This document shows positions 31,593 through 56,692 of a stretch of DNA of 64,000 bases, piece after piece. This stretch comes from an uncultured Rhodobiaceae bacterium (GTDB lineage Bacteria; Pseudomonadota; Alphaproteobacteria; Rhizobiales; TMED25). The DNA lies in assembly GCA_913045225.1 (NCBI GenBank), contig CAJWPC010000004.1, forward strand, positions 148,821 to 212,820, read 5' to 3'. The notes under the pieces are model-generated. The model saw only the letters and a list, made by a program, of their open reading frames with translations, did not search any database and had not been told where the DNA came from. Positions within the stretch are counted from its first letter, which is position 1. Every line of letters begins with the position of its first letter. The position numbers and the translations under genes were made by a program.

Positions 31593-32990
31593 ATGAAATT
31601 TAATAATATAAGAGAAATTATCAACTCCATCAAAAGCAAAGAGCTGTCCCCAAGGGAAGTTACCGAATATTACTTGAATAGAATTTCAGAGCACAATCAC
31701 AAATTCAATGCATTCATAACAATACTCGAAGACGAAGCCCTGAAAAGGGCAAAAGACGCAGAAAGTGAAATCTTAAATGGGGTATACAAGGGTCCCCTTC
31801 ATGGCATCCCATATGCTGCAAAAGATATAATTAACACCGCAGGAACTCGTACCACAAATGGATCAGCTTTGTATAAGGACTTTATTCCAGAGCATGATGC
31901 ATACTGTATATCTAAGATGAACGATGCAGGTGCTATATTACTAGGCAAAACAAATACTCATCAATACGCAGCAGCCTCTACAACTATAAATGCACATTTT
32001 GGGACAACGAGAAATCCACACAACCCACTAAAAATTGTCGGGGGCTCCAGTGGTGGTTCTGCCGCTGCAGTGGCGAGTAAATTTGTTCCCATCTCACTTG
32101 GAACTGACACAGGAGGATCTATTCGGACTCCATCATCACTATGCGGTATTGTGGGTCTGAAGCCAACCCATGGCGCAATCAGCCTCAGTGGGGTTTTTCC
32201 AAACTCACCGAGTATAGACCACGTTGGACCAATGTGCGAATCTGTTTATTCCACAGCCTTGGCCTACAGCGCCTTGGAGGGATATGACCAAAATGACATG
32301 AAATCAGTTGAGCATAAAAAAATTGATTTGTCACAACTTGAAAGTGATATTAAGGGTCTCAAAATTGCGATATGTCCTGACATATATCAAAACCAAGAAC
32401 TAGATGGTGAGGTAGAAGGTTCATATGAACACGCAAAATCTTTACTCGAAGATCTTGGCGCCAGCATAACAACAATCAATTTTGAGGATGTGGATATAAT
32501 ACAAGATTTATTCTATGGCATCGCAGGCCCGGAATTCACAAAAGTTCACATCAAACAGTATTCTGAAAATCCTGAAAGTTTTGATCCTGATGTTCGAAAG
32601 AGAATGGAATGGTCCGTAAAAGTAGATATAGATGATTATCTGACGGCACTTGATAACAAAATCAAAATGACAAGATTGATTGAAAATAAAATTAAAAAAT
32701 TTGACGCATTAATAACACCGGCCACACCTTTTACAGCGCCACTGATAGAGGACCTTAACGCAAAAATAAATCAGAAAAATTATGATTATTCAGCTAATTA
32801 TCATAGACAGTTCTTTAGTCCCTTTAATGTTACGGGCTTACCGGCTTTGGTCTTACCAATTGGAAGGGATAAGTCAAATATGCCAATTGCAATGCAAATT
32901 GTAGGCAAGAAATGGGACGAAAGTAAAATACTTCAAATAGCCTATAACATTGAAGCTAATATTATGTATAATAACAACATCAGTTTTTAG
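31593..32990 (+). CDS. amidase-signature family enzyme
   Basis: Ser-cisSer-Lys triad motifs AAKD, GGSSGGS, GTDTGGSIR; no gatB/gatC nearby. Confidence 0.9.
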   Translation: MKFNNIREIINSIKSKELSPREVTEYYLNRISEHNHKFNAFITILEDEALKRAKDAESEILNGVYKGPLHGIPYAAKDIINTAGTRTTNGSALYKDFIPEHDAYCISKMNDAGAILLGKTNTHQYAAASTTINAHFGTTRNPHNPLKIVGGSSGGSAAAVASKFVPISLGTDTGGSIRTPSSLCGIVGLKPTHGAISLSGVFPNSPSIDHVGPMCESVYSTALAYSALEGYDQNDMKSVEHKKIDLSQLESDIKGLKIAICPDIYQNQELDGEVEGSYEHAKSLLEDLGASITTINFEDVDIIQDLFYGIAGPEFTKVHIKQYSENPESFDPDVRKRMEWSVKVDIDDYLTALDNKIKMTRLIENKIKKFDALITPATPFTAPLIEDLNAKINQKNYDYSANYHRQFFSPFNVTGLPALVLPIGRDKSNMPIAMQIVGKKWDESKILQIAYNIEANIMYNNNISF

Positions 32991-32999
32991 GAGATTAAT

Positions 33000-33686
33000 A
33001 TGGAAATAATAGACTTAAGCCGTGAGCTATATCACCGCACCCCACAATACCCAGGACAGCCTCCTATCATTCATGGTGTTTGGAAAAGTCACGAAGAAGC
33101 TTTTGCAGACTCTGGCAATATCCAAGGGAACTCCGTGCATTATTTTTCAATGCCTGACCATGGGGGGACACACATTGATGCCCCAAGACATTTTAGTATT
33201 GATGGAACGCCAATTAATGAATATCCACTTGAAAATTGTATTGTGAAAGGTATTTGTATCGATTTACGACACGTAGAACCAAAATCAGAGATAACGTCCT
33301 CAGATTTGGAAGAAGCCGTTAAAAAAACAGGCCAACCGATTCCAGAAAATGGAACTTTACTACTTTGCACAGGCCATCACGAGAGGACTTTCCCATCAGC
33401 TGCTTATTCAACCGATAACCCTGGAGTGAATATTGAGGCAACAAAATGGATCGCAGAACAGGGTTTCGTTCATTTTGGTATCGACTCGATGAGACCGGGC
33501 CCAATTGGAGATGTAAACTCGCTCGTACATAAAATATGTCATGAGGTAAATATCACACATCTGGAGAGCTTATGTAATCTCGAGAAACTGATTGGGAGGG
33601 GGGAATTCACATTCATTTGTCTACCGTTAGCTTGGAGGGGTGGAACAGGCTCGCCAGTAAGGGCGGTAGCAGTTTTTGATATGTAA
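33000..33686 (+). CDS. cyclase family metallohydrolase (kynurenine formamidase / isatin hydrolase-like)
   Basis: HGGTHIDAPRH fits HxGTHxDxPxH; ESLCNL; GSPVRAVA. Confidence 0.9.
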   Translation: MEIIDLSRELYHRTPQYPGQPPIIHGVWKSHEEAFADSGNIQGNSVHYFSMPDHGGTHIDAPRHFSIDGTPINEYPLENCIVKGICIDLRHVEPKSEITSSDLEEAVKKTGQPIPENGTLLLCTGHHERTFPSAAYSTDNPGVNIEATKWIAEQGFVHFGIDSMRPGPIGDVNSLVHKICHEVNITHLESLCNLEKLIGRGEFTFICLPLAWRGGTGSPVRAVAVFDM

Positions 33687-33692: not shown

Positions 33693-34241
33693 ATGAGCCC
33701 ACAACCAAAACCACCGAGAAGGGTAATTGTAGGAAACAGGGAGGATGGCCGATCTTATGTTGTGTCAGATACTGAAAACCCCTACCAGTATAATCGAGGT
33801 GGTGGTTCAACAATCTATTTTAATGAAATCTGGACATTTGATAACTGCCCGGTTGATATATCAAATCATTCAGACGGCGCAGATAGACCGCTCTCTCACT
33901 CACCACCATTAAATGGCGCACACTTTAGAGTTATTGAGTCAAAGAAAGAAGATAATAAAAAAATTGACCAAGAAAAAGCAGATAAATTTTTTGCGTCGAT
34001 GAATAGAACAGGACTCTCTGAAAAAATGAAGAGTGAGAAGCATTGGAATATGCATCGCACCCGCACGGTTGATTATGGTGTTGTGACAAAGGGCAAAAGA
34101 ACCCATGTTTTACCCGAAGACGAATTAGTCATGTATGAGGGTGACATAATTGTTCAGCTTGGTCATTTTCATTCATGGGATAATAGTCATGGGCCAAACG
34201 AAATGCTCTTTATTATGATTGGTGGTGATGATAATGACTGA
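33693..34241 (+). CDS. cupin domain protein
   Basis: RRVIVG N-terminus, MHRTRTVDYGVV, GDIIVQLGHFHSWDN. Confidence 0.82.
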   Translation: MSPQPKPPRRVIVGNREDGRSYVVSDTENPYQYNRGGGSTIYFNEIWTFDNCPVDISNHSDGADRPLSHSPPLNGAHFRVIESKKEDNKKIDQEKADKFFASMNRTGLSEKMKSEKHWNMHRTRTVDYGVVTKGKRTHVLPEDELVMYEGDIIVQLGHFHSWDNSHGPNEMLFIMIGGDDND

Positions 34242-34773
34242 CATAAGGCGAATAGTAATTGGGCAACTTCCAAATGGCGAAATAAAAAGAATAAGTGATG
34301 GAATTGCTGAAGATGCCATTACCGATAATGCTAGACCAGGATATAAATCAACAAAAATATGGGCGACATTACGAAGCCCTGCTAATTTTGGTAATGACGC
34401 GAAAGAGGAAAGTGACAGTTACCCACACACCCTGATACCTCCAAAATCAGGATCAATATGTAGATTTGTGACTTTCCCCCCTGAAAATGAGTACATTAAT
34501 AAAGTTACAAGAGAGGATGTCAAAAATTTTTACAAATCCATTAATTCAATCGAACTCTTCAGTGCCAAAAATTTAAAGCATCCATACATGCACAAAAATA
34601 ATTCTCTAGATTATATTTACGTAATGAAAGGCTCCATCTTTTTAATTTTAGACGAAGATCAAGTTCAGCTAAATCAGGGTGATACCATAGTCAATCTTGG
34701 AGGAAATCACGCCTGGAGTAATAGAACAGATAGTGTATGTGAACTTTTTATTTCCTCGCATAGCAGCTATTAA
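34234..34773 (+). CDS. cupin domain protein (same family as upstream gene)
   Basis: RRIVIG N-terminus, MHKNNSLDYIYV, GDTIVNLGGNHAWSNR; ATG 34234 overlaps the upstream gene end. Confidence 0.82.
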   Translation: MTDIRRIVIGQLPNGEIKRISDGIAEDAITDNARPGYKSTKIWATLRSPANFGNDAKEESDSYPHTLIPPKSGSICRFVTFPPENEYINKVTREDVKNFYKSINSIELFSAKNLKHPYMHKNNSLDYIYVMKGSIFLILDEDQVQLNQGDTIVNLGGNHAWSNRTDSVCELFISSHSSY

Positions 34774-34774: not shown

Positions 34775-35674
34775 TCAGACTGATCTACTCTCTCTCCACC
34801 ATATTGCAAGACCTGCTAATATGACAAGACATGCCCCAAAAATAGTTTGCGAACTCGGTAGTTGATTAAAAATATAATATCCCATAATTGTTGATCCAAT
34901 GATTTGTAAATATAGAAATGGTGCAATAATTGACGATGGAGTTATCCTGAATGCCTGCGTTAGTAGTAAATTTGTTATAATTGATCCAAAAGCTATAACT
35001 GCCAGTAAAAACCATTGGAATGTATCTGGCATCACAAGTGCAACGCGATCATATCCTGTAATACCACCAAAAATGAATATAGCTGTCATCATGATAACTG
35101 CTGTAATTGCCGTATAATATTGAAACACGGGAAGTCTTGCTGCATTTGCCCATTTTCTTGCCATCAATGCTGAGAGACCGTGAAATAATGCCGCTAAGGC
35201 TGGAAATACTGCACCCCATCCAACATCATCAAAATTTGGTCCGATCACAAGCAGAGCTCCACCCATTCCAGCCAAAACAGCAATCCACCTATAAATGCCG
35301 ACTTTTTCTCTCAATAGTATAGATGACAAAGCAGTTATAATGATGGGTTGTATGAAAAAAATAGCAACAGCATCCACAAGTGGGAGGACTGATAATCCGG
35401 CATAGACACATAATGTCCCAAGACTTGCAAGAATGCCTCTCACTAATAACGGCCAGCTAGGTTTGGCGATCCACTCCTCTTTTGGAAGATACAAATATAT
35501 ATAAACGCTCAATACTACAACATGCAGCATGAATCTAGTAAAAGAAACCTGCGGAGGCGCCATGGCATCGCCGAGAAGTTTTACAGATGCCTCAATAAAT
35601 GGCACTGTCAGAATGAAACCAAAGGTGAATAGTGTACCCTTAGTTGAGTCATCAATAATTTTTATTTGAGCCAT
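34775..35674 (-). CDS. DMT/EamA family transporter
   Basis: About 10 hydrophobic segments, LLREKVGIYRW, IAPFLYLQII, GLAIWWRE. Confidence 0.88.
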   Translation of the reverse strand: MAQIKIIDDSTKGTLFTFGFILTVPFIEASVKLLGDAMAPPQVSFTRFMLHVVVLSVYIYLYLPKEEWIAKPSWPLLVRGILASLGTLCVYAGLSVLPLVDAVAIFFIQPIIITALSSILLREKVGIYRWIAVLAGMGGALLVIGPNFDDVGWGAVFPALAALFHGLSALMARKWANAARLPVFQYYTAITAVIMMTAIFIFGGITGYDRVALVMPDTFQWFLLAVIAFGSIITNLLLTQAFRITPSSIIAPFLYLQIIGSTIMGYYIFNQLPSSQTIFGACLVILAGLAIWWRESRSV

Positions 35675-35691: not shown

Positions 35692-36795
35692 TTACAATTT
35701 AATACTGTATTGATTTAATTTATCTTCATCAATATTTATTCCGAGGCCAGGACCGTCGTCGGGAGTGATTATGTGGCCTTCAATAACTTTGACTGGATTT
35801 TCTGCTATATCATCTGACAAATATTGACTAGATAAACTCGCATCCCAGTCAAGAGATGGTAGCGCTCTGGTGAAGTGGGCTATCGCCGCACTTCCAATTG
35901 ATGTGTTTGCAGCTTTTCCAGCAAGATTTATATGCATGTCATATGAATGCATCAGATTTGCAGCTTCAAATAATTGCGCGACGCCTCCAAATTTGATCAT
36001 TTTGAGACTACCGCCATTTGCCGCCTTACGATCATAATGTATCTTTATATCATCAATATTGTGGATTCCTTCATCCACACCAATAGGTGCATACGATCTT
36101 GCGTTGCATTCCACCATTGTATCAATATCTTTTCCAGTTACCGGCTGTTCAAAAAAGTCCAATCCGATATCACCCGTCTTTGAAGCAAAAATTAATGCGT
36201 CGCTTCTATTAAAACCCTGGTTGGCATCCGCTGAAAGCGTATAATTATGATCAAGAATTCTCTGGGCCTGATATGATCTCTCTATATCCTCGTGAACATT
36301 ATTTGTGCCTACTTTAACCTTGAAAGAAACAAAACCTTGGTCGACTTTTTCTGCCAGCAACTTAAACTCATCATCACCACCAGCAACCAGCCAAATCATT
36401 GGAACCTTATCTCTCTTAGCTCCGCCGAGAGTTTCGTATAGTGGTTTATCCTCTGATTTACCAAATAGATCATATAATGCCATATCAATTGCAGATTTAG
36501 CACCTGAGTTTCCGTAGATTGTTGATGATATTACGTCTTTAATATCACTTTGTTGCAGAATTTCTTTTCCCAGTAATCTATCTTTCATAAAATCAATTGC
36601 AGCAACCATACCGCGAGATGTTTCACCGTTAAAAAAAGGGGCATAAGGGGCCTCACCCCAACCAACTTTTCCGTTATTCGCGGTTATTTTTACAACTGTA
36701 TTATCGCAATGCTCAATATGGACACCTGACATTTTTAGTGGCACCAAAAGCGGTACCTGAATTATGTATGTCTCAATATTTTTTATTTTAAACAT
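35692..36795 (-). CDS. enolase-superfamily enzyme (MLE-subgroup-like), copy 1
   Basis: GWGEA, KVKVG, DANQG, EQP, DEG, LKMIKFGG, GPGLG. Confidence 0.88.
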   Translation of the reverse strand: MFKIKNIETYIIQVPLLVPLKMSGVHIEHCDNTVVKITANNGKVGWGEAPYAPFFNGETSRGMVAAIDFMKDRLLGKEILQQSDIKDVISSTIYGNSGAKSAIDMALYDLFGKSEDKPLYETLGGAKRDKVPMIWLVAGGDDEFKLLAEKVDQGFVSFKVKVGTNNVHEDIERSYQAQRILDHNYTLSADANQGFNRSDALIFASKTGDIGLDFFEQPVTGKDIDTMVECNARSYAPIGVDEGIHNIDDIKIHYDRKAANGGSLKMIKFGGVAQLFEAANLMHSYDMHINLAGKAANTSIGSAAIAHFTRALPSLDWDASLSSQYLSDDIAENPVKVIEGHIITPDDGPGLGINIDEDKLNQYSIKL

Positions 36796-36807
36796 ATACA
36801 AGCGGTA

Positions 36808-37878
36808 TCATAATTTGATTGTATTATTCAACTTCGCAGACTCTTCCATTGCAAGTGTAATTATTAAATTCTTTCTTGCATCTTTGGGTGTTGCAATTGG
36901 GCATGGTCGATCCATTGATAAGTGGTCTAACCAGACTCGAGTCTCATCAGCCACAGGACCCCAATAATCTCCAAGATGCCAATTTCCGGGGGTTGAGCTT
37001 GATAAAAATGCAGTATTAAACTCAAGATCGGGAATATAGGCATGAGGTATTCCGTTATTTGTAATTAACAACTCATCTGTATGATCATCATTTAGAATTA
37101 ATGCCCCATCATCACCATATACCTCAAATCTTACACCCATACCTAACTGTGGAGAGTGCGAAGGAAGCGCAAAAAATACGCCTAAGTTTACGATTGCACC
37201 ATTATCAAATTTGATTAAACTCCATGTAGTATCATTTACATCAAATCCTGCTTCTCGAAAAACTGTTCCCGCACCTCGAGCAGTGACTTCAACTGGCTCA
37301 ATGCCATCAAGATACCAACATGCAACATCAACCCAATACGTTAGAACATCTACCACAGGCGTCGCCGTACTTGACCTCTTCAATATTTCAATGCCTTGTG
37401 CACGTGTATTACAAGCCCGCGCCGAAATAGATAGGATATTTCCAATTCGTCCTTCAAGCAGCTGATCTTTACCTGAGAGATATCTTCTTTTGAAACGTTG
37501 GGCATAACCGACTCTGAATAATGTTCCTGTCTCTTCAGATTTTTTTATCATTTTATCAGCCTCATCAACCGAAAGTGCGATTGGTTTTTCAACTAAAACC
37601 GGCTTACCTAATTCAAGCGCATGCATTACTGAGTCAAAATGCTCATGCTCACTTGTCGACACAATCACAACATTGACATTCGGATCTGAGATTAATTCAT
37701 GATTGTCATTTGTAAATTTTTGAGCATTGGATTTGGCTGCGAGTTTTTTTGCATTTTCAATATTTATATCTGAGACTCCTAAATAATTTACTGCAGGGTG
37801 ACCAGATGCTAAGATCGCTCTCAGAGATCCAATCCTTCCAGAACCAATAACTGCTAAACCAAGTTCTTTCTGGGACAT
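36808..37878 (-). CDS. Gfo/Idh/MocA family oxidoreductase
   Basis: IGSGRIG, VLVEKP, GYAQRF. Confidence 0.88.
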   Translation of the reverse strand: MSQKELGLAVIGSGRIGSLRAILASGHPAVNYLGVSDINIENAKKLAAKSNAQKFTNDNHELISDPNVNVVIVSTSEHEHFDSVMHALELGKPVLVEKPIALSVDEADKMIKKSEETGTLFRVGYAQRFKRRYLSGKDQLLEGRIGNILSISARACNTRAQGIEILKRSSTATPVVDVLTYWVDVACWYLDGIEPVEVTARGAGTVFREAGFDVNDTTWSLIKFDNGAIVNLGVFFALPSHSPQLGMGVRFEVYGDDGALILNDDHTDELLITNNGIPHAYIPDLEFNTAFLSSSTPGNWHLGDYWGPVADETRVWLDHLSMDRPCPIATPKDARKNLIITLAMEESAKLNNTIKL

Positions 37879-37879: not shown

Positions 37880-38911
37880 TTAAATTTTACCTTTAAGTGA
37901 GCTTATGACATCCTCTACGAGGTTTTTTGATGATGTCACTTCACCTGCATAAATCCTCTTTGTCACTTCGACAATTTTATCATTAATTGGAGTTTCAATG
38001 CCAAGTTTTTGGCCGCCTTCAGATACCCATCCATTGATAAGGTCAACTTCACTTAGGCGTCCTTTCCTGTGATCTTGCAGTACGGTATTTAATGCCGTAG
38101 GACCGACATGTTTTGTGATAGTATCAAGTAAGAGTTCCTGGACTCTGTTTGATGTATTAATTTCTTCTTGGGTTAATCCCATAATTGGCTCTAATTTATA
38201 ACCAAGACCTTCACCAACCTTAAGCGCTTCCTCTCCGGCCTTCAGCATAAGGTCTCTCATACCATCCATTTCAAAAGCTTCAGCAGGCCGCAGATCCCCA
38301 ATGGCCTTTATCCCCATTCCCATTGCATTAACAATTAATTTCATCCATTTTGCTGATAAAATTGCATCACTTATCCCGACTTTGCCAGCAAATTTCAGTA
38401 CTTCTTCAACATCTGCAATTCTACTTTTCATTTCAGGGGTCAGCGCACCAAGACCAAACCACGTTCCCTCAGGGGGAGTATTTCTTTTGACTGACCCTGG
38501 GTCAAACAATTCAGACGATAGCTCAGCAACACATCCTATGGTCCTGTGCGGCCCAACTATTTCAGAAATTTGTTCTGCCATCATACAATTTTGAACCCCT
38601 ACCAAGATTCCATCGTCAGCTAAGTATGGCTTTATTAGTTCGCATGTCCAAGCCGTATCATATGCTTTGACAAAAACTAGGACAATGTCAAACTTCTCGG
38701 TAAATGTTGCTACATCGCATAAATGATAGGCATCAACATTGACTTCTAATGTTCGGTTCGGCATTTCAATCTTAAGTCCATCCTTTCGCATCTTTTCAAC
38801 ATGCTCAGGCCACTGATCGATCATTTTTACATCCAAACCATTACTAATTAGATCTGCAGAAACGCAGCTACCATTGGCGCCAGTACCGATTATTGCAATT
38901 TTCTTTTTCAT
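37880..38911 (-). CDS. ketopantoate reductase (ApbA/PanE)-family dehydrogenase
   Basis: IIGTGANG, VKAYD, KWMKLIVN, LQDHRKGRLSEVDLING; start moved to ATG 38911. Confidence 0.85.
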   Translation of the reverse strand: MKKKIAIIGTGANGSCVSADLISNGLDVKMIDQWPEHVEKMRKDGLKIEMPNRTLEVNVDAYHLCDVATFTEKFDIVLVFVKAYDTAWTCELIKPYLADDGILVGVQNCMMAEQISEIVGPHRTIGCVAELSSELFDPGSVKRNTPPEGTWFGLGALTPEMKSRIADVEEVLKFAGKVGISDAILSAKWMKLIVNAMGMGIKAIGDLRPAEAFEMDGMRDLMLKAGEEALKVGEGLGYKLEPIMGLTQEEINTSNRVQELLLDTITKHVGPTALNTVLQDHRKGRLSEVDLINGWVSEGGQKLGIETPINDKIVEVTKRIYAGEVTSSKNLVEDVISSLKGKI

Positions 38912-38978
38912 CTTTATCCTCATCCCATTTTCACAAAGTAGTAGACAGCATTTACAAATAATGCCATGTAATAAAATC

Positions 38979-40208: not shown

Positions 40209-40219
40209 ACCAAAATCAC

Positions 40220-41324: not shown

Positions 41325-41945
41325 ATGTTGCATATAAAAGGCAGAAAAACTTCTGGTAATGTGATGAAAGTGACATGGATATTGGAGGAGTTAAAAATAC
41401 CATACGAAAGAGAAGATGTTGGCGGTAAGTTTGGCAAGAATGATGAACAAGATTACTTAGATCTAAATCCAATGGGGCTCGTACCAACACTTATTGACGG
41501 TGATATTATCCTCTGGGAGTCAAATACAATTGTGCGCTACATCGCAAATAAATTTAGTTCCGGTGACTTATCACCAGTCGATGATGGGGAAAGAGCTATT
41601 TTAGAACTTTGGATGGACTGGCAATTATTTGCAATAAACCCAATGATGAGACCTATCTATCATGGAATGATAAGGACTAAGCCCGAAGATAGGAACTGGG
41701 ATGAGATCAATAGGAATATTATGCGTGGAAATGAATTATGGGCGATATTAGACAAACATCTCGAAGATAAAGAATATATCGGTGGTAATAAGTTAACCAT
41801 TGCTGATTTTCCAGTCGGACCTGTCATTCATCGCTATCACTCTATTGTCGAGGACAGACCAGTAACACCAAATATCGATAGATGGTACAATAATTTGAAA
41901 GAGTCCGAAGCATACCAAAAAATTGTCATGATACCCCTTGAATAA
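41325..41945 (+). CDS. glutathione S-transferase family protein
   Basis: GRKTSGNVMKV, NPMGLVPTL, LWESNTIVRY, TIADF. Confidence 0.9.
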   Translation: MLHIKGRKTSGNVMKVTWILEELKIPYEREDVGGKFGKNDEQDYLDLNPMGLVPTLIDGDIILWESNTIVRYIANKFSSGDLSPVDDGERAILELWMDWQLFAINPMMRPIYHGMIRTKPEDRNWDEINRNIMRGNELWAILDKHLEDKEYIGGNKLTIADFPVGPVIHRYHSIVEDRPVTPNIDRWYNNLKESEAYQKIVMIPLE

Positions 41946-43044: not shown

Positions 43045-43131
43045 AATCTAGCTCCTTCAAAAAATAGACAGTAAAGATACAAATCTGTTATAATATATTT
43101 TAAAAATTTATCTTTAGGAAGGGATTTGATA

Positions 43132-48290: not shown

Positions 48291-49463
48291 ATGGCGCCAT
48301 CTATGCAAGCAGTGTGGATCACCCGACTCGTAATGAGCTGGATTGCCTGGGATCTTACAGGTTCAAGTGCTTATGTTGGTTTGCTGTCTTTTTTCTTGTT
48401 CGTACCATACATCACAACAATACCTTTTTTTGGGGTACTATTAGACCGGATCGAACCTCTGAGAACTGCTATCATAGCTCAGATAATACAAGCATTGGCG
48501 GCATTCACTATTTTTCTAATGCACATTACAGATAGCCTATCCATATTTTCATTGTGCACGGTAGCTGTAATAATTGGTACAGCAAATAGTGCACAAGGCT
48601 CTGCGAGGCAGACAATCGTACCTCGCATTGTTGATAAACCAACAATTGCAAATGCAGTTGCCTTCAATGCAATGAACTTTCAAATTGCAAGAATTATTGG
48701 ACCGAGCGTTGGAGGTATCCTCATTGGTTTAATTGGAACGAAATATACCATCTTGTTTTCTTCATTCTTTTTCCTGCCAGCATTGATAACCCTACCAATG
48801 ATTGTGTTAACACCGAAGCAAGGTGAAAGTATAAAGAAAGAGTCAAACTTTATTTCAGAATTGGTAGATGGAGCAAGATTTGCGCACAGAAATGCTGTTA
48901 TTTTTGAGTGTATAGTTTTAACATTTATTTCATCAGTCATTATTCGCGGTTGCCATGAATTACTTCCCGCATTAGCTGATGGCAAATTCAATATGGGTGT
49001 TGAGGGTCTTGGTCAAATTATGGCTGCAGCTGGAGCTGGGGCTTTAATTTCTTCATTTTTAATTGCATCAAGAAAAAAAACCTACAATGATAATGGGATT
49101 CCAATGATTGCGAGGATTTCCCTTATTTTGGGTTTATTATTTGTTACGATACTTGGCTATGTTGATAATTGGTATTTAGCAATTCTTGCTGCCTTTATAA
49201 GCGGAGCATGCGTTACAAATGTTGCTATCGATATGCAATCAACCGTGCAAATGCAACTAACCGATACCTACAGGGCCAGAGTCGCAAGTCTCTGGCTTGC
49301 AACCGCTATTGGTGGCAGCGGTCTTGGCTCAATATTGAATGGAATATTTTCCGATGTATTTGGAATTACTGAGACATTTATTTTTGTCGGGCTTATCGGG
49401 GTATTGGCAGTAATCTTGACTCAAGCATGGTTACATACAAAAAATAGGGAAATTGGAGTATGA
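48291..49463 (+). CDS. MFS transporter (MFS_3/EntS-like); true start probably upstream near 48228
   Basis: WDLTGS, GVLLDRIE, ARIIGPSVGG, YRARVASL; homologous-looking sequence continues in frame upstream of the ATG. Confidence 0.85.
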   Translation: MAPSMQAVWITRLVMSWIAWDLTGSSAYVGLLSFFLFVPYITTIPFFGVLLDRIEPLRTAIIAQIIQALAAFTIFLMHITDSLSIFSLCTVAVIIGTANSAQGSARQTIVPRIVDKPTIANAVAFNAMNFQIARIIGPSVGGILIGLIGTKYTILFSSFFFLPALITLPMIVLTPKQGESIKKESNFISELVDGARFAHRNAVIFECIVLTFISSVIIRGCHELLPALADGKFNMGVEGLGQIMAAAGAGALISSFLIASRKKTYNDNGIPMIARISLILGLLFVTILGYVDNWYLAILAAFISGACVTNVAIDMQSTVQMQLTDTYRARVASLWLATAIGGSGLGSILNGIFSDVFGITETFIFVGLIGVLAVILTQAWLHTKNREIGV

Positions 49464-50665
49464 TGAGCGCCAACAAAATCAAGCAAGATGCCCCAATGTC
49501 TGTGTTATTCACTATGTTGTTTGCTGGGCAAATTGCCTCTACAATTTTCTTGCCCGGCCTTCCATCAATTGCCGCTGAATTAAATATTCCAAGATCAATT
49601 GTTCAAACAATGGTGCCTGTCTATCTCGCGGCATTTGCTTCGACCCAACTAATAATTGGACCACTATCTGATAAATTTGGGAGAAAACCAATTGTTTTGT
49701 TGGGAATATTACTTTTTACGATTGCAAGTTACTTATGCGCCAATGCAGATGATATTCACACTCTCTTGCTTTGTCGGGTTGCACAGGCCACAGGGGCATG
49801 TTCCACTCTAGTAATTAGCAGAGCAATAATTAGAGATACCTCAGAAGGCTTAGCTGCTGCGAAAGCAATGTCCTATGTTGCAATTGCCATGGCAATTGGA
49901 CCTATACTAGCCCCCTTTATTGGTGGTTTTTTAACAGGTTGGTTTGATTGGAGAGCTACATTCCTTTTCACCTCACTTACTGGTTTGATTGTTTTAGTTC
50001 TTATTTTCTTCAATTTGAAAGAAACGCTACCAAAAGAGATGCGGGATCCACCAAAAGTAACAACTCTTCTAACTAACTACAGAGATTTACTAAAGAATGT
50101 AAAATTTACGTCCTACAGTATGATCGTAGCATTTGCAAGTGGGGCCATGCAGGCATACGTCGTAGCGTCTCCAATTATTTTTATTGTTATTATGGGTGTT
50201 TCTCCTGAAGTTTTTGGTTTTTATGTCATGATTATGCCATCTCTTTTTGTTCTTGCTACTTTCATTTCAAGAAAGATGTTGGATTACATTACTGTTGACC
50301 AAATTGTAATTATTGGAGGACTCTTTAGCTGCTCAGGCGGGGTTCTGCAGTTATTTTTCGGAATAAGTGAGGTGGAAACACCTCTTCCCGTTCTGATTGC
50401 ATTTGCAATTTCGAATTTCGGTACAGGACTATTGCTTGGAAATTGCTATGCAGCGGCACTCAATTCGGTGAAACCAGAAGTTGCAGGCTCAGCATCTGCT
50501 TTGGGTGGGTTTCTTCACTTTGGTTGGGGTGCCTTGATAACCATCACCCTTGCTAATATTCATATGACATCATCATTTGTATTTAGCGTCGCCCAGCTAA
50601 CGACAACAACTCTTGCTTTAATAACAATTATCGTATTAAATTTTGTATTCGTTAAATCTTCATGA
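49460..50665 (+). CDS. MFS transporter, Bcr/CflA (DHA1) family
   Basis: FLPGLP, GPLSDKFGRKP, SRAIIRD, GPILAPFIGG, LKET. Confidence 0.9.
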   Translation: MMSANKIKQDAPMSVLFTMLFAGQIASTIFLPGLPSIAAELNIPRSIVQTMVPVYLAAFASTQLIIGPLSDKFGRKPIVLLGILLFTIASYLCANADDIHTLLLCRVAQATGACSTLVISRAIIRDTSEGLAAAKAMSYVAIAMAIGPILAPFIGGFLTGWFDWRATFLFTSLTGLIVLVLIFFNLKETLPKEMRDPPKVTTLLTNYRDLLKNVKFTSYSMIVAFASGAMQAYVVASPIIFIVIMGVSPEVFGFYVMIMPSLFVLATFISRKMLDYITVDQIVIIGGLFSCSGGVLQLFFGISEVETPLPVLIAFAISNFGTGLLLGNCYAAALNSVKPEVAGSASALGGFLHFGWGALITITLANIHMTSSFVFSVAQLTTTTLALITIIVLNFVFVKSS

Positions 50666-50672: not shown

Positions 50673-52106
50673 ATGAATATATTTAATAGCTACCAGAACA
50701 CTGAGCCAAAGTTCAGAACAATAACCACACTCATTATGCCACTCGTGATGGTATCTGTCATAATGGCTGAGTGGTCAGGGTCTTATATTTCTTATGTAAT
50801 ATCGGCTCTTTTAATTTTGTTATACCTCTCAATGTCTCTGAATGATCTGTCCCTATCGAGAAAATTATTTATAGTCCTTGGCTCTATTTTGACTTTAGTT
50901 TCTATTCTTGTATTACCTGACTGGACCAAGGTATCTATAGAGGCTCTTACAAAATCAACTTTTGTAGCAACCTTTTTTTTATCGCTTTGCTGTTTGAGGA
51001 AAGCCGCCTCATCGTCACCCGCAATGGAGAAGTGTGGGCGGTACCTGGCTGAACAAAAAACTTCAATAAGATACCTTACATTAACGTTCGGTGGGCATAT
51101 GTTTGGTGTTATACTGAGTTTTGGCTCGATTTCTTTGCTTGGTAGCCTGGCTGAGAAAGGCAGCAGTGAGATAAAAGACCCCGACTCTCGCGCGTTAAAT
51201 AGAAAAGCAATGCTTCTGGCGGTTCAACGTGGTTTCGTGGCCATGACATGTTGGTCTCCCCTAACATTCTCAATAGCCATAACAACGTCCGTTATTCCAA
51301 ATACGACATGGACTGGAGCTGCTCTATCTTGCATTATTAGCGCTATAATTCTGATAACTGTTGGCTGGTTTCTTGACTACGTAGCGACTCGGAAGGTTAA
51401 ATCAAGAATGCAAATCCCAGACCTGAAAACTTCAGGAACGTGGCATACTTTGATACCATTAGCTTTTATTTTTATCACTCTATTGGGTATTATCTTTACT
51501 CTCATGAACTATACGAATCTTAACGCGGTACCAGTTGTTATGTTTGTGGTGCCCATTTACAGTATAATTTGGATTGCATATCAAAATACAGGTAACACAA
51601 AGAAAATAATCTATAACACGGCGCATAGAGTTGATGAGTTCATCAATGAAGATATCTATAATTATAAGCAAGAGCTTATTGTGCTGATCATGGCTGCATT
51701 TATTGGGATAATGGGATCGAGCTTAATTAATCACTTTGCAGGAGAGAGCATAAGTTTTTTAAATGGCATCCCAGCTCCCATAATACTCATTGCTATTGTA
51801 TGGATTATGCCCGTATGTGGACAAATTGGAATGAATCCCATACTTGCTGTTTATATGATTGGACCATTAATTCCATCTGCAGAAATAATGGGGGTCCCTC
51901 CAAATAGTATCATTGTAGCTCTGTGCGCGGGCTGGGCAATAACAGGGATAAGCTCGCCTTTTACAGCATCAACTTTATTGATCGCTAAATTAGGTCGTGT
52001 GACACCGCATTATGCGGGCTTGAACTGGAACGGTTTATTTACAATTATTGGTGGCGTGCTATTATCAATATGGGTTATAATCGCAAACAAATTTGTTGTT
52101 ATTTAA
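50673..52106 (+). CDS. multi-pass membrane protein, possible transporter (477 aa)
   Basis: About 13 hydrophobic segments; QRGF..CWSP, IGMNPI and SSPFTAS loops; no family recognised with confidence. Confidence 0.7.
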   Translation: MNIFNSYQNTEPKFRTITTLIMPLVMVSVIMAEWSGSYISYVISALLILLYLSMSLNDLSLSRKLFIVLGSILTLVSILVLPDWTKVSIEALTKSTFVATFFLSLCCLRKAASSSPAMEKCGRYLAEQKTSIRYLTLTFGGHMFGVILSFGSISLLGSLAEKGSSEIKDPDSRALNRKAMLLAVQRGFVAMTCWSPLTFSIAITTSVIPNTTWTGAALSCIISAIILITVGWFLDYVATRKVKSRMQIPDLKTSGTWHTLIPLAFIFITLLGIIFTLMNYTNLNAVPVVMFVVPIYSIIWIAYQNTGNTKKIIYNTAHRVDEFINEDIYNYKQELIVLIMAAFIGIMGSSLINHFAGESISFLNGIPAPIILIAIVWIMPVCGQIGMNPILAVYMIGPLIPSAEIMGVPPNSIIVALCAGWAITGISSPFTASTLLIAKLGRVTPHYAGLNWNGLFTIIGGVLLSIWVIIANKFVVI

Positions 52107-52305: not shown

Positions 52306-53145
52306 ATGAAATACCCCCCAGTTCATATAAATGATGTTCCCATATCAAAAATGGAAGAAAAAAACGGGTGGAACATATCTGAATTCAGACTACCAATAAC
52401 AGGTGAGTCGGGATCGTCGACAACTGTTTTTCACTCAATATTCAAACCAGGTTCTACTCATAGCAAACATCTACACTCTCGATGCCCAGAGATAGCGATG
52501 TATCTCAAAGGGCATGGGGTTGTGGGACAAGGCAGTGAGAGAACAAATGTAAGAGCTGGACATTTTAGAGTTATGCCAAAAAACTCAGAGCACTTCTTCC
52601 ACAATGAAACAACTGACTCAGATGCTGAAGTTATTGGATTTTACATTGGTGCAAAAGATGTAGAAGATACGGGTTATGAATACTGCGGTCCTGTCACAGA
52701 AGAGGATTTGAAAAAAGAAAGGACTGGTTTCAATGAGGGTATATTAGTTCATATTGACGATATAGAGCCCGAAAAGATGGATGAAGGTGATGGATGGTCA
52801 ATAACAGATTTTCGCCTTCCGATAAGTAAAAAAAATGGCTCAACTACAACAGTCTTTAATGCTAAATTTATGCCAGGTGCAATTCATAAAAAACATATGC
52901 ATACAAATTGTGAGGAAATTTATTATATCGTGTCAGGCAAGGGTATTGCAGGGGCTGGTGGTGAAAAAACATACATTGAAGCTGGACATTTTCATTATAT
53001 ACCAAAAGGTGTTGAGCATTGGCTTTACAACACGAGTGAAACTGACCCAATTCATGCTGTTGGTTTGTATATTGGATCAGGAAGCGTCGAAGAAACTGGA
53101 TATGTCTATCTGGGGGATGTTACAAGTGAAGATTTGATAATATAA
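52306..53145 (+). CDS. bicupin (two tandem cupin domains)
   Basis: Internal duplication GWNISEFRLPI / GWSITDFRLPI; HLHSRCPE...SEH and HMHTNCEE...VEH; AAGGAG RBS. Confidence 0.85.
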   Translation: MKYPPVHINDVPISKMEEKNGWNISEFRLPITGESGSSTTVFHSIFKPGSTHSKHLHSRCPEIAMYLKGHGVVGQGSERTNVRAGHFRVMPKNSEHFFHNETTDSDAEVIGFYIGAKDVEDTGYEYCGPVTEEDLKKERTGFNEGILVHIDDIEPEKMDEGDGWSITDFRLPISKKNGSTTTVFNAKFMPGAIHKKHMHTNCEEIYYIVSGKGIAGAGGEKTYIEAGHFHYIPKGVEHWLYNTSETDPIHAVGLYIGSGSVEETGYVYLGDVTSEDLII

Positions 53146-53166
53146 AATGTAGATGAGGGAGATAAA

Positions 53167-54147
53167 ATGAGATTTGTATATTTTAATGACTACAAGTTAG
53201 GGGTTTTAAAGGGAGACAACGTTGTTGATATCACTGAACAACTATCCGATATACCGGTGAGAGATAACAGAGACCTGATTAATGGTTTAATAGAAAATTA
53301 TGACAAGTATAAAGCTTCTTTGGAACAATTTGTAGCAGTAAACGATGGCATTCCAAGTAATGAGGTACAATTAAGGAGTCCCTGCCCACGTCCAAATAAT
53401 ATTGATTGTATGGCTGTAAATTACATGGAAGATGGTACTAGGTCTGAGCCTGCTCCAATCAATGCTTTCCATAAAGCAACAAATACAGTTATCGGTGACG
53501 GAGATACAATGGAATTAACAGATATACCGGCATCAATATTTGAGGGAGAGGCGGAGCTCGCACTTGTTATAGGAAAGAAGGCAGAAAATGTTAGTGAAGA
53601 GAACGCAATGGATTATGTTTTCGGCTACACAAATATAATTGATGGATCTGCAAGAGGCCTTATTACATCGAATTTTTTCTTTCAGATGAAATCACGGGCA
53701 ACATATACTCCAATTGGACCATGTTTAGTTACCAAGGATGAAATAGATGATCCTCAAAACCTACAAGTAGTTCTAAGAAATAACGGTGTGGTAATGCAAA
53801 ACTTTAATACAGACGATATGGCACATAAAATTCCAAGATGTATTTCATGGTTAAGCTCAATACATACATTAGAGCCTGGAGATATTATAGCTACAGGTAC
53901 AAACCATCGAGGACTTAATCCATTCATGGATGGTGATAAAATTGAATTGGAAATAGAGCACATTGGAACTCTCAATTTTAATGTTAGAGATCCCCTTAAA
54001 AGAACTTGGGAACGAGTTACCAGAAAAACCCATATTGAAGATCGAGGGCTTGAAGGTGCTCATACGCCTCAGCTAACAGGAAAGTACGCCAAGGGCGAAA
54101 CTGCAAAAACATCCAATGAAAAAGACAGGAAGCTGACGAGTATTTAA
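53167..54147 (+). CDS. fumarylacetoacetate hydrolase family protein
   Basis: AVNY, EGEAELALVIG, GYTNIID, IGPCLVT, LEPGDIIATGT. Confidence 0.9.
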   Translation: MRFVYFNDYKLGVLKGDNVVDITEQLSDIPVRDNRDLINGLIENYDKYKASLEQFVAVNDGIPSNEVQLRSPCPRPNNIDCMAVNYMEDGTRSEPAPINAFHKATNTVIGDGDTMELTDIPASIFEGEAELALVIGKKAENVSEENAMDYVFGYTNIIDGSARGLITSNFFFQMKSRATYTPIGPCLVTKDEIDDPQNLQVVLRNNGVVMQNFNTDDMAHKIPRCISWLSSIHTLEPGDIIATGTNHRGLNPFMDGDKIELEIEHIGTLNFNVRDPLKRTWERVTRKTHIEDRGLEGAHTPQLTGKYAKGETAKTSNEKDRKLTSI

Positions 54148-54149
54148 TA

Positions 54150-55241
54150 TTATTCTATATTAAACAACTTTAATGCGGTCTGTCCGACAACATTTTTCTT
54201 TTGTGCATCAGTCAAGTTACTATCTACAATGTGTTGAACTGGGAAATACTCTGCCATGTCATATGGATAGTCTGTTCCCAGCACAACATGGTCATCCCCA
54301 TAATTATTGACCAGATACTCGAGCTGCTCATGCGTGAACACAGTGGTATCAAAATACAACTTCTTCAAATAACTAGTTGGAGGATTAGGTAAATCACCAT
54401 AAGAGTCCTTCCGTGCTCCCCATGAATGGTCAATTCGACCGGAGTACGCAGGTAAAAATCCTCCCCCGTGAACTCCTAAAATTTTTAGATTTTTGTATCT
54501 TTCAAGAAGTCCGTTAAAAATTATATAATGTAAGGCAACTGTCGTATCTAATGGGTTGCCAATTACATTGGTAAAGTAGTAATTTCCAAATCTCTTCCCA
54601 TGAGAAAAACCTAATGGGTGTAGCATTACTGCAAGATCATATTCTTCAACTTTTGCCCAGAATTTATCTAATGAGTCATCAGATATTTCCATGCCATTTA
54701 CATTTGTCAGGATCTGTAAACCCTTGAGATTTGTCTCTTTCTTTATGTAATCAAGTGTATCTAAAGCTATATCCAACTCTTGTAATGGAACAGTTCCAAG
54801 ACCTACAAATTTGTCCGGGTGGGCATCAACCCACTTCATCATGCCATCATTAACAATTCGCGATACTTTATTCGCGTCCTCGCCTCTTGCCATATAGTAG
54901 CATTGGTTCGGAACAGAAGCGATAACCTGTTTATCAATACCTTGCGTTTCTAAAACTTGAAGACGGTCCGGAATGCTGGATAATGCAACCGTCCTATCAG
55001 TATCCTGAATCTGTTGAATTTCAAGTGTCTCTGGACTGGAGTCATGTACAAATGGAATGTCCCCCAAATTGTATAAGGGGCTAATAAAATCATGAGCTTC
55101 CGGTATTAGAACATGGGCGTGAGTATCGATTACAATTGAGTCCATATCTATTTTACGGGTAGATACGTTCCTTGCTGAAGTTGGACCATACCTGTTTGGA
55201 CTATCACCTAGTTTAGGTGTATCAATTACACTGTGAGACAT
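54150..55241 (-). CDS. amidohydrolase_2 family protein (ACMSD/decarboxylase-like)
   Basis: IDTHAH, MLHP, HGGG, GTDYPY; start moved to ATG 55241 (AAGG RBS). Confidence 0.88.
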   Translation of the reverse strand: MSHSVIDTPKLGDSPNRYGPTSARNVSTRKIDMDSIVIDTHAHVLIPEAHDFISPLYNLGDIPFVHDSSPETLEIQQIQDTDRTVALSSIPDRLQVLETQGIDKQVIASVPNQCYYMARGEDANKVSRIVNDGMMKWVDAHPDKFVGLGTVPLQELDIALDTLDYIKKETNLKGLQILTNVNGMEISDDSLDKFWAKVEEYDLAVMLHPLGFSHGKRFGNYYFTNVIGNPLDTTVALHYIIFNGLLERYKNLKILGVHGGGFLPAYSGRIDHSWGARKDSYGDLPNPPTSYLKKLYFDTTVFTHEQLEYLVNNYGDDHVVLGTDYPYDMAEYFPVQHIVDSNLTDAQKKNVVGQTALKLFNIE

Positions 55242-55312
55242 TTTGATTACCTTTAAAAATTCAATTATGTTATAAGTTTGATACATATTATCTAAAAGAG
55301 AAATAAAGGGAA

Positions 55313-56692
55313 ATGAAAAAAAATATTTTGCATAATAAATCAATTGAAGAATTTCATACTGATTTATTATCTGGAAAAACTTCAATATTTGAAGTTGCTG
55401 AAGAAGTGGTAGAAAATTATAATCATAGTGAAGCCAGCAAGAGTGCATTTGTAGAATTTAATAATGAAGAGATTGAGAAATTAGCCTCTACAATTAGCAG
55501 GAGTGACAGCAATCATTTTGCATTTCTTGGGGTTCCTGTATCAATAAAAGATCTTTACGGTGTCAATGGTTACAAGACAAGAGCTGGAACTCCGAAAGAG
55601 CTCCCAAGTAAGTGGGAAGTACAAGGGCCAATTATCAATACCCTGACATCCCACCACTCTCTAATTACAGGAAAAACACATACCGTTGAATTCGCCTTTG
55701 GTGGCGTTGGGATGAACCCACATTGGGGAACGCCAATAAATCCTTGGGATGAGACAGAGCATCGAGTCCCAGGTGGTTCTAGCTCAGGCGCTGGTGTCAG
55801 TTTGTGTACAGGAACTGCAGCCCTTGCATTAGGCACTGATACTGCTGGCTCTGTAAGAATACCAGCTTCTGTGACTGGAAATGTGGGACTGAAAACAACA
55901 AAAAATAGATGGTCGACGGAAGGAATTGTTCCGCTGAGTAGCAGCTTTGATACACCGGGCATACTTACCCATACAGTCGATGACTGCATCTATGCCTTTA
56001 AAGAACTCGATAAAACAAGCTTATATAACAAAAAAGACAAAGGGCTTAACGTTGACCCTAGTATTGATTTCACTTTTACAACATACGATTGGTTCTTCGA
56101 TAAATGTGATGACCAAATAAGCAGTGAGATAAATGCTGCAATCAAAAAGATTGAGGGAAATGGTAAGTATAAGAAAGTAAATGAACTAAATGAAATTGAC
56201 AATTCATACAACTTATTTACAAAAGGCGGCCTAGCAGCAGCTGAGTTTGCAGCATTCATAAATGGTGAGATGAGGGATCTAAAAGCGACTTTAGATCCTA
56301 ATGTGGCCTTTCGTATCAAAGATATGGACTCATTTACAGCGATGGAGTATTTAGAACGAAAAAATGATCTTGAAACAATGAGTTACTCAATCAATAAAAA
56401 GTTTGAAGAATTTGATATAATTGTAACACCAACTGTCCCAATAACAGCGCCAATAACGTCATATTTAGAAGACTCAAAGAAATACTCAGAGGCTAATGGC
56501 TTAATGCTCCGAAATACTTCACCTGTAAATCTTCTTGGCTTATGTGCCATAACAATCCCTGTAGCACTTGATGGAAGTGGAATACCAATCGGGGTACAAT
56601 TGATAGCGCCAGCATTTGATGAAATGAAGTTACTCTCAATAGCTCTAAGAATTGAGAATTCGCTCGGTAATAAGTATAAAAATTTGATATAA
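55313..56692 (+). CDS. amidase-signature family enzyme, second copy
   Basis: SIKD, GKTHTVEFAFG, GGSSSGA, GTDTAGSVRIP. Confidence 0.9.
   Translation: MKKNILHNKSIEEFHTDLLSGKTSIFEVAEEVVENYNHSEASKSAFVEFNNEEIEKLASTISRSDSNHFAFLGVPVSIKDLYGVNGYKTRAGTPKELPSKWEVQGPIINTLTSHHSLITGKTHTVEFAFGGVGMNPHWGTPINPWDETEHRVPGGSSSGAGVSLCTGTAALALGTDTAGSVRIPASVTGNVGLKTTKNRWSTEGIVPLSSSFDTPGILTHTVDDCIYAFKELDKTSLYNKKDKGLNVDPSIDFTFTTYDWFFDKCDDQISSEINAAIKKIEGNGKYKKVNELNEIDNSYNLFTKGGLAAAEFAAFINGEMRDLKATLDPNVAFRIKDMDSFTAMEYLERKNDLETMSYSINKKFEEFDIIVTPTVPITAPITSYLEDSKKYSEANGLMLRNTSPVNLLGLCAITIPVALDGSGIPIGVQLIAPAFDEMKLLSIALRIENSLGNKYKNLI

Follow-up and report, generated by a model that had tools for sequence, protein, structure and literature searches.

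The stretch of DNA considered here is a window of 64,000 nucleotides (GC content ~37%) from the genome of an uncultured bacterium, and the element in question is the block of genes at positions 31593–56692 between rplS and aroE, for which a degradation pathway had been proposed in a first-pass annotation of the DNA. The source genome (G000) has a size of 1.34 Mb in 13 contigs and is 99.2% complete. Public records with 95–99% identical copies of the bicupin region of the block are titled 'uncultured OCS116 cluster bacterium' or are metagenome-assembled genomes of Rhodobiaceae or Hyphomicrobiales, and the interval is an enzyme-rich core-chromosome segment of an uncultured marine OCS116 bacterium. 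The relatives compared include another species (G013), another genus (G015), a third genus with a genome of 2.2 Mb (G016) and a member of the same family with a genome of 4.1 Mb (G017).

The block is bounded on the left by rplS (30973..31410, minus strand; PF01245, E 1e-49) and on the right by aroE (56704..57669, minus strand; TIGR00507 with 218 bits, cut-off 200), both of which lie outside it. Counting non-nested open reading frames (ORFs) of at least 90 amino acids between these two genes gives 24 ORFs (g01–g24), with a largest intergenic gap of at most 199 bp. The first-pass annotation had given 25 genes, a number not reproduced by this rule, whereas the enzyme families that it named were all recovered with Pfam and NCBIfam. 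The three cupins it listed are found as the bicupin g21, as g04 with a sub-threshold Cupin_2 match, and as g03 by its likeness to g04 and its Cupin_2 Atlas clusters. In agreement with it, no regulator, integrase, Rieske or flavin oxygenase was seen among the Pfam domains of the 24 proteins. Transporters are present as it had stated, but its count of at least five becomes seven transporter-type membrane proteins, namely one EamA, three of the major facilitator superfamily (MFS), one LysE, one CNNM/CBS and the protein g20 with ten transmembrane (TM) segments, to which a membrane Zn-peptidase is added. Neither tRNAs nor Rfam elements were detected in the window.

Transcription units (TUs) were called from strand switches and spacing, with gaps of 1–25 bp inside units and of 68–199 bp at divergent or unit starts. 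This divides the block into about ten units: g01–g04, g08–g05, g09–g11, g12, g13–g15, g17 with g16, g18–g20, g21–g22, g23, and g24. The active-site motifs are intact in the amidases g01 and g24, the cyclase g02, both enzymes of the muconate lactonizing enzyme (MLE) subgroup (KxK), the bicupin g21, and g23. Only three NCBIfam models were reached, those of the ApbA/PanE subfamily (g08, by one bit), of Bcr/CflA efflux (g19) and of aroE itself, and all other enzyme matches fall below the NCBIfam equivalog cut-offs. Because every enzyme match is under such a cut-off, the enzymes of the block are, judged by sequence models, orphans, and the corresponding label of the first-pass annotation is upheld. 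For the modules described below, families, motifs, boundaries and phyletic pattern are reported as observed; the substrates and reaction orders of all modules are inferred from them.

At the left end of the block, TU1 comprises four genes on the plus strand. The first one, g01 (31593..32990), encodes an amidase-signature enzyme with a GGSSGG motif, whose best NCBIfam match is the AtzE family NF006631 (346 bits, cut-off 461). It is followed by g02 (33000..33686), coding for a cyclase-family metal hydrolase of the KynB or isatin-hydrolase type (PF04199, E 4e-33), which has an intact metal motif HGGTHIDAPRH and reaches 70 bits with the arylformamidase model TIGR03035 (cut-off 223). Its PDB matches are a cyclase-phosphotriesterase, kynurenine formamidase and isatin hydrolase; the chain 8F9X is reported to be a cyclase-phosphotriesterase of Ruegeria pomeroyi (PMC12135135). 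The remaining two genes, g03 (33693..34241) and g04 (34219..34773), encode paralogs with ~30% identity, the alignment of which contains a conserved H..MH..DY..GD..H.W pattern. The protein g04 is a cupin matching Cupin_2 with 26 bits, slightly below the cut-off of 27.2, and the cupin-like g03 lacks a Pfam match and has Cupin_2 clusters as its nearest Atlas clusters (score 0.96). Acting one after the other, g02 and g01 would perform two successive C–N hydrolyses, the first freeing formate or an acyl group and the second ammonia from a primary amide.

In G015, G016 and G017, the orthologs of g01 and of the cyclase are found together. Both cupin genes are missing in G006 and G014, where g01–g02 persist and only a third cupin paralog, 32–33% identical, is retained; this loss argues against a dependence of the hydrolases on the adjacent cupin pair. 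Homologs of g02 were found in 7 of 300 other Alphaproteobacteria (E<=1e-30) with identities of up to 46%, and at three of nine loci of cyclase homologs outside the family an amidase is located within 3.5 kb. One of these three loci, L128, also carries a divergently transcribed Cupin_2 gene. It was considered as a relative of g03 and g04 and was ruled out, as no pairwise similarity to either of them was detected. In G017 (L157, 10365–12801) an acyl-CoA-dehydrogenase-like protein comes after the cyclase ortholog, and next an M24 peptidase of the creatinase/prolidase type, both of which are missing from the streamlined genomes. The acyl-CoA-dehydrogenase-like fold also serves flavin monooxygenases, and the two partners could hint at the original substrate of the cyclase.

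The next two units are divergently oriented operons, each of which combines an MLE-subgroup enzyme with a carrier. TU2 runs on the minus strand from g08 to g05. Its first gene g08 (37880..38980) encodes an ApbA/PanE-like 2-oxoacid reductase (PF02558 and PF08546), which passes TIGR00745 with 142.5 bits vs. 141.35. Its coverage in more distant relatives is 0.91–0.97, and the true start probably lies ~20 codons further in. It is followed by g07 (36808..37878) for a Gfo/Idh/MocA oxidoreductase (PF01408), one of ten in the genome, and by g06 (35692..36801) for an enzyme of the MLE subgroup of the MR/MLE enolase superfamily (PF13378 and PF02746), with a KVK motif at residue 161 and 2p88 as best PDB match. 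The last gene g05 (34775..35674) encodes an EamA/DMT transporter (PF00892) with eight hydrophobic segments. Between G000 and G013 it has 99% identity, compared with 66–89% for its neighbours, and in G006, G010 and G014 it is only 73–75% identical; judged from these values, g05 looks like a recent single-gene exchange between species.

TU3 lies on the plus strand and starts with g09 (38874..40208), encoding an MFS transporter (PF07690) with a coverage of 0.92–0.96 in more distant relatives, the true start of which is probably near 38979. Downstream are g10 (40205..41314), coding for a second MR/MLE enzyme, 41% identical to g06, and g11 (41325..41945), coding for a glutathione S-transferase (GST; PF02798). 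On the muconate cycloisomerase model TIGR02534 (cut-off 335), g06 and g10 reach 188 and 172 bits, and g11 reaches 41 bits on the maiA model TIGR01262 (cut-off 171). Two of 300 other Alphaproteobacteria have homologs of g06 (E<=1e-70, 41–44% identity), and none of three loci of such homologs outside the family has a Gfo neighbour. The PanE-Gfo-MLE-EamA operon g08–g05 is seen only in the two small-genome genera; in G016 and G017 the g07 ortholog has neither MLE nor PanE neighbours. The two divergent operons each pair a carrier of their own with an MLE-subgroup enzyme, one together with NAD(P) oxidoreductases and the other with a GST; racemisation, cycloisomerisation or dehydration of an acid may be coupled to NAD(P) oxidoreduction.

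A further pair is formed by g12 and g13, which are transcribed divergently. The gene g12 (41947..43044, minus strand; TU4) encodes an Ldh_2-family 2-hydroxyacid or imine oxidoreductase (PF02615, E 1e-101), with 198 vs. 356 and 182 vs. 496 bits on the AllD models. The gene g13 (43126..44769, plus strand; first gene of TU5) encodes a thiamine diphosphate (ThDP) enzyme with three TPP domains, closest to the models of 2-oxoacid decarboxylases (AruI-like). It scores best on models of a 2-oxoacid decarboxylase and of an unnamed ThDP subfamily, and PRK07524 is matched with 400 bits vs. 500. Across two genera g13 is 84–92% identical. No close ortholog of it was found in 300 other Alphaproteobacteria at E<=1e-120, a strict limit that is silent on more distant relatives. 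Likewise, close relatives of g12 are absent from the 195 same-order genomes outside the family at E<=1e-70. The pair is retained in G015 and G017, and G016 has a second GST where g12 would sit. Here, a 2-hydroxy acid might be oxidised to the oxoacid (or a cyclic imine reduced), which the ThDP enzyme would decarboxylate to an aldehyde and CO2.

Another module is TU8, in which bicupin and FAH genes are adjacent in all four genera, including G015, G016 and G017, with g20 upstream in three genera. The gene g21 (52306..53145, plus strand) codes for a bicupin of 279 amino acids with two Cupin_2 domains, in both of which a His/His/Glu/His metal site is present. In an alignment of 14 sequences H55, E62, H96, H197 and H238 never vary, and at least 90% of the sequences have H57, H199 and E204. 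The structure was predicted with a pLDDT of 94, and the folds closest to it are those of oxalate decarboxylase, MncA and the quercetinase YxaG (14–16% identity); the fold search as a whole returned generic bicupins alone (oxalate decarboxylase, MncA, quercetinase and seed globulins, 9–16% identity) and gives no pointer to the substrate. No chain named gentisate dioxygenase is among the 27 sequence matches of g21 (E<=0.001) or among the fold matches listed. The second gene, g22 (53167..54147, plus strand), encodes an FAH-family hydrolase or decarboxylase (PF01557) that matches, among PDB chains, the C-terminal half of HpaG (E 2e-46) and, less well and over residues 1–273, a solved maleylpyruvate hydrolase (E 3e-38), and all its NCBIfam matches are under their cut-offs.

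Homologs of the bicupin outside the family are 55–68% identical and come from records titled Betaproteobacteria, Burkholderiales, Nitrospinota, Streptomyces and Chitinophaga. At none of the 12 loci, several of which are short or end at the gene, does an FAH, Amidohydro_2 or amidase gene lie beside them. Their neighbours vary, and the sole recurrent one is a TctC-type receptor (9 of 12 loci). The TctC family is common in Betaproteobacteria, to which the majority of these loci belong. Together with an Atlas neighbour of g20, these receptors weakly suggest a carboxylate substrate; the Atlas neighbour is a single one, named 'citrate transporter-like', and is a lead only. Tandem bicupin paralogs (34–37% identity) are located directly upstream of the homologs at L066 (9099–9938, record titled Nitrospinota) and at L158 (8674–9504, G017). 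In the proposed sequence, the metal cupin would oxidise or decarboxylate a carboxylate, after which the FAH enzyme would catalyse C–C hydrolysis or the decarboxylation of a 2,4-dioxo acid, with g20 upstream as putative carboxylate carrier.

The protein g20 itself is the last one of the middle stretch, g14–g20, which extends over 7.3 kb and separates the enzyme-rich stretches g01–g13 and g21–g24. TU5 continues after g13 with g14 (44795..45421, plus strand), encoding a LysE-type amino-acid exporter (PF01810), and g15 (45443..46120, plus strand), encoding a membrane Zn-metallopeptidase (PF04298). On the opposite strand follow g16 (46126..47187) for a CNNM/CBS transport protein of the CorC type (PF01595 and PF00571), the NCBIfam matches of which include the polyamine exporter PaeA and CorC, and g17 (47306..48148) for an alpha/beta hydrolase (PF00561) with a GFSFG elbow. 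The genes g14–g16 are variable, being missing in G013 and G015, and g14 is also missing in G014. TU7, on the plus strand, consists of g18 (48291..49463; MFS_3 of the EntS-like antiporter family, PF05977 and TIGR00900), g19 (49460..50665; MFS of the Bcr/CflA efflux family, TIGR00710 with 256 bits vs. a cut-off of 201) and g20 (50673..52106), a membrane protein with ten hydrophobic segments and no Pfam or NCBIfam match, which is possibly a carboxylate carrier of the ion-transporter superfamily. In G016 and G017, g17 is found near g18–g19. The middle 7.3 kb mainly contains efflux-type and housekeeping membrane genes and is not enzyme-rich catabolism.

The right end consists of two single-gene units. 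The gene g23 (54150..55244, minus strand; TU9) encodes an ACMSD-like Amidohydro_2 decarboxylase (E 7e-43 to human ACMSD), in which the HxH, His, HGGG, GR..H and GTDYP positions match the human enzyme; the metal ligands, the catalytic His and the GR..H arginine presumably have the roles described for them in the ACMSD literature. It has no NCBIfam match and is one of six ACMSD-like paralogs in the genome. The longest ORF (54150–55448, 432 amino acids) has 135 nt in common with g24. Orthologs at a greater distance cover only ~85% of it, matching from about residue 66, and 55224 is where an RNA-library contig stops. This points to the ATG at 55244 as the probable start (364 amino acids), which would leave a divergent intergenic region of 68 bp. 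Homologs of g23 occur in 10 of 300 other Alphaproteobacteria (E<=1e-40, up to 44% identity, including the unpublished G280). None of 11 loci outside the family has a bicupin near them; a distant FAH gene lies at least 8 kb away at two of the 11 and an Ldh_2-like gene is adjacent at two of the 11. No ortholog of g23 was found in G016 or G017, the best match in G017 (40%) being at the level of a paralog. The gene g24 (55313..56692, plus strand; TU10) encodes the second amidase-signature enzyme (PF01425, E 7e-68) with a GGSSSG motif and 311 vs. 447 bits on PRK07056. A non-oxidative decarboxylation is proposed for g23.

For RNA, contigs of Logan assemblies were used, in which DNA carry-over is possible, depth cannot rank genes and uncovered bins are uninformative. 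On record as RNA are 17 of the 20 metatranscriptome rows holding part of the stretch, all with small shares. Contigs of four marine metatranscriptome runs from three studies fall on 36700–56699 with 21–27 of 30 bins covered, thereby matching portions of most genes at 92–100% identity, and the longest pieces (871–1195 nt; X1, X3, X4) fall on g23. These contigs show presence in RNA libraries only, and are neither proof of transcription nor a mapping of operons.

Several of the enzyme families occur in many copies in the 1.34-Mb genome: ten Gfo, eight ThDP, six Amidohydro_2 (ACMSD-like), four PanE-like, four amidase and three MLE genes. The OCS116 lineage has multiplied these enzyme families. Outside the window, three mini-clusters of the same families are located at C4:48403-56182 (Amidohydro_2-Gfo-Gfo-MLE, with an MLE 54% identical to g06), C2:195988-199637 (Amidohydro_2-Gfo-PanE-like) and C1:269480-278269 (Gfo-amidase-GST-Gfo). 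Between G000 and G015, which belong to different genera, the identities are 84% for the ThDP enzyme, 80% for the cyclase, 78% each for the bicupin and Gfo, and 70% for g23, compared with 84% for leuC and 42% for aroE. By these comparisons the enzymes of the block are kept under strong constraint, conserved like leuC and above aroE. Within the family, the local GC content falls with genome size from ~60% (4.1 Mb, G017) over ~49% (2.2 Mb, G016) to ~37% (1.3 Mb), which is a steep streamlining gradient. Two other alphaproteobacterial genomes of family f156, G173 and G326, recur in every class-wide search with matches and have homologs of g23 (3–4 copies), g02 (1–3 copies) and g06, and a second lineage seems, from these homologs, to share this enzyme repertoire.

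Seven relatives have a contig that reaches from rplS to aroE, and the block occupies this position in every one of them. All 24 genes are syntenic in G001, G007 and G012, 22 in G006, and 21 in G013, G014 and G015. However, of 65 ORFs examined in the window, 61 are collinear in G013 and 58 in G015, and these include all those on the far sides of rplS and aroE. Since collinearity with another species and another genus extends over all 64 kb of the window, the order kept within the block is nothing special and says little about functional coupling.

The genes of a single co-inherited cluster would stay together where synteny breaks, and this is the case in G017 for four small groups only. In this genome (~60% GC) the orthologs are spread over the contigs C3, C4 and C5. 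Near rplS on C4, g09–g13 and g17–g19 are found together with insertions of a cupin, a second GST and a TAXI-TRAP transporter; the TAXI-TRAP uptake system of this g09–g13 module is missing from the streamlined genomes. On C3, the orthologs of g01 (47%) and g02 (77%) lie 2.8 kb apart. On C5, those of g21 (67%) and g22 (66%) are adjacent at 1.73 Mb, the g24 ortholog is 6.4 kb away from them with genes for EPSP synthase and histidinol dehydrogenase in between, and the g07 ortholog (68%) is alone at 0.32 Mb, 1.4 Mb from the other C5 orthologs. In G016 the orders cyclase-amidase-rplS-M42-leuC and GST-GST-ThDP-hydrolase-MFS-MFS-g20-bicupin-FAH are seen. The four groups that survive all comparisons are g01–g02, g21–g22, g09–g13 (MFS-MLE-GST with Ldh_2 and ThDP) and g17–g19 (hydrolase-MFS-MFS). 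Scattered orthologs without recurrent co-occurrence had been named in the first-pass annotation as the outcome that would speak against its pathway. For the block as a whole this is largely what the dispersal in G017 amounts to, but not for these four sub-modules.

With a probability of roughly 60%, the interval is a mosaic of small independent orphan modules and efflux or housekeeping genes on a collinear core chromosome, as opposed to an island or a single pathway. Four or more separable enzyme modules are proposed, namely g01–g02 (with or without g03–g04), g08–g05 with g09–g11, g12 with g13, and g21–g22, each of which would carry out a short conversion of two to four steps with its own carrier. 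Their most likely targets are various low-molecular-weight carboxylates and amides from dissolved organic matter, a different one for each module, as would suit a lineage in whose small genome such promiscuous families have multiplied. Many parallel small routes are favoured over one long route because these families have multiplied genome-wide.

Several points weigh against such a mosaic. The gene order g01 to g24 is fixed in two genera and that of g11–g22 in a third, and in genomes without local regulators a fixed order could mean co-regulation by position. The families can be fitted into one coherent scheme of decarboxylation, cupin ring cleavage, deformylation, deamidation and C–C hydrolysis. 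Apart from the bicupin, no homolog from outside the family exceeds 46% identity, and these homologs may not be orthologs, so that missing shared neighbours there are weak evidence. The ancestral arrangement may have been either scattered, as in G017, or contiguous.

The first-pass annotation had read the 25 kb as one or two largely hydrolytic, oxygenase-poor routes by which an amide- or N-heterocycle-bearing acid is degraded with release of N and C. A possible order of such a route would be ACMSD-type decarboxylase, cupin ring cleavage, cyclase-type deformylase, amidase and FAH. The needed chemistries are all present with intact active sites, two genera have a fixed gene order, and the cyclase and amidase pair recurs at the three distant loci, L128 with its divergent Cupin_2 gene among them. 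Moreover, the genome lacks classical ring oxygenases, its single Rieske protein having 194 amino acids, which would leave the cupins as the only candidates for ring cleavage. However, the parts of such a route lie on three contigs in G017, which has no g23 ortholog, and g03/g04 were lost in G006 and G014 with g01–g02 kept. The efflux-type and housekeeping genes stand between both enzyme stretches, the bicupin is without FAH, ACMSD-like or amidase neighbours at 12 of 12 loci outside the family, and the cupin of L128 resembles neither g03 nor g04. In view of the ten units, the middle 7.3 kb, the collinearity of the whole window and the dispersal in G017, the reading as one or two routes is not sustained and is considered unlikely.

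A role mainly in detoxification, metabolite repair and export instead of nutrient catabolism was also weighed, in which small molecules that are harmful or damaged would be inactivated by the GST, the alpha/beta hydrolase, the amidases and the decarboxylases and expelled by the LysE, EntS-like, Bcr/CflA, EamA and CNNM proteins. Three of the seven membrane proteins belong to exporter-named families (LysE, MFS_3/EntS-like and Bcr/CflA), the CNNM matches include PaeA, a binding-protein-dependent uptake system is absent from the block, and the TRAP system of G017 did not persist in the streamlined genomes. Against this, the MFS g09, the EamA protein and the 10-TM protein g20 stand first or last in enzyme operons, the usual position of substrate carriers. 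In addition, combinations of dehydrogenase, MLE, ThDP and FAH enzymes are typical of carbon catabolism, and the very high conservation of the enzymes fits a central nutrient use in an oligotroph, so that such a role is held to be improbable. A horizontally acquired genomic island would fit the nearest outside-family relatives of the bicupin in Betaproteobacteria, Burkholderiales, Nitrospinota, Streptomyces and Chitinophaga records, the lack of close relatives of g12 and g13 in 195 genomes of the order and 300 of the class, respectively, and the GC content of the block (0.36–0.43), which is slightly above that of the window ends, but it is highly improbable given a position and gene order shared by two genera and in part by a third, the collinear surroundings and the absence of an integrase and a tRNA (flanking repeats were not searched for), and any transfers would be old and gene by gene, not block-wise.

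OCS116 is a widespread, abundant and understudied lineage of uncultured bacterioplankton, and no genome-centred study of it was found among the matches listed in a literature search at title and abstract level. A genome of 1.34 Mb that keeps ten Gfo/Idh/MocA, eight ThDP and six ACMSD-like genes must rely on them for its niche, all the more since their conservation equals that of leuC. Their substrates, once known, would show which dissolved organic compounds OCS116 removes. With the mosaic reading, the targets are narrowed from a 25-kb 'pathway' to amidase plus cyclase, bicupin plus FAH, the MFS-MLE-GST, Ldh_2 and ThDP genes, and g23. It also calls for caution, as conserved gene order in streamlined genomes is not evidence of shared function.

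Compared with known pathways, the kynurenine route shares with the block the KynB-type metal motif of g02 and, in g23, the metal ligands, the catalytic His and GR..H of ACMSD. In contrast, g02 is below the arylformamidase cut-off and g23 is one of six paralogs. Matches to tryptophan dioxygenase (PF03301), which is found in 2 of 14 control genomes, and to 3-HAO (PF06052) are absent from G000, and g03 and g04 have no 3-HAO match. For the beta-ketoadipate route, intradiol dioxygenase (PF00775) has no match in G000 either, and the scores on the TIGR02534 and PcaD models (51 vs. 256 bits for PcaD) are under the cut-offs. Both routes are excluded because tryptophan dioxygenase, 3-HAO and intradiol dioxygenase are missing from the genome, which bears out the statement of the first-pass annotation that the gene set does not correspond to them. 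Of the gentisate and allantoin sets, which it also gave as not matching, the models for maiA (41 vs. 171), AllD (198 vs. 356) and the ura-cupin (30 vs. 200 bits) are not reached. A cyanuric acid route suggested by AtzE was rejected, since its cut-off was missed and the Pfam and NCBIfam matches of the block name no gene of the AtzD, AtzG or AtzH type.

With the gentisate pathway, the block shares a set of three families, the bicupin g21, the FAH protein g22, which aligns with maleylpyruvate hydrolase, and the GST g11. Unlike in that pathway, g21 with its 279 amino acids has no chain named gentisate dioxygenase among the sequence and fold matches listed, and g11 is under the maiA cut-off and lies 10 kb away in another unit. 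The divergent Ldh_2 and ThDP genes g12 and g13 resemble the pair of sulfolactate dehydrogenase and sulfopyruvate decarboxylase as well as the AruI step in the arginine transaminase pathway. They differ from these in staying below the equivalog cut-offs (g12 with 250 vs. 500 bits on the sulfolactate dehydrogenase model, g13 with 400 vs. 500), and no transaminase, aldehyde dehydrogenase or sulfite-handling gene is located beside them.

The maleamate branch of nicotinate and picolinate degradation uses the 2,5-dihydroxypyridine dioxygenase NicX/PicD, the N-formylmaleamate deformylase NicD/PicE and the maleamate amidase NicF/PicF, with the Amidohydro_2 decarboxylase PicC upstream. Its logic of decarboxylating a hydroxylated heteroaromatic acid, opening the ring by a dioxygenase to an N-formyl amide, deformylating and finally deamidating it has counterparts in the block in the Amidohydro_2 protein g23, the formamidase-type g02 and the amidases g01 and g24. 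The block differs in having no hydroxylase that would make the diol, and its parts do not form one operon and are scattered in G017. It also differs in its candidates, which are cupins, a PF04199 hydrolase and amidase-signature enzymes and apparently not members of the NicX, NicD and NicF families; the general Pfam scan of the 24 proteins, made without a search directed at NicX, NicD or NicF, returned only cupin, PF04199, alpha/beta hydrolase and amidase-signature folds. It is doubtful that g01–g04, g20–g22, g23 and g24 together provide OCS116 with an oxygenase-poor route by which hydroxylated carboxylates of the pyridine or benzoate type are degraded. If they do, each step of this route would be catalysed by a family unlike those known from the nicotinate and picolinate (maleamate) and the gentisate pathways.

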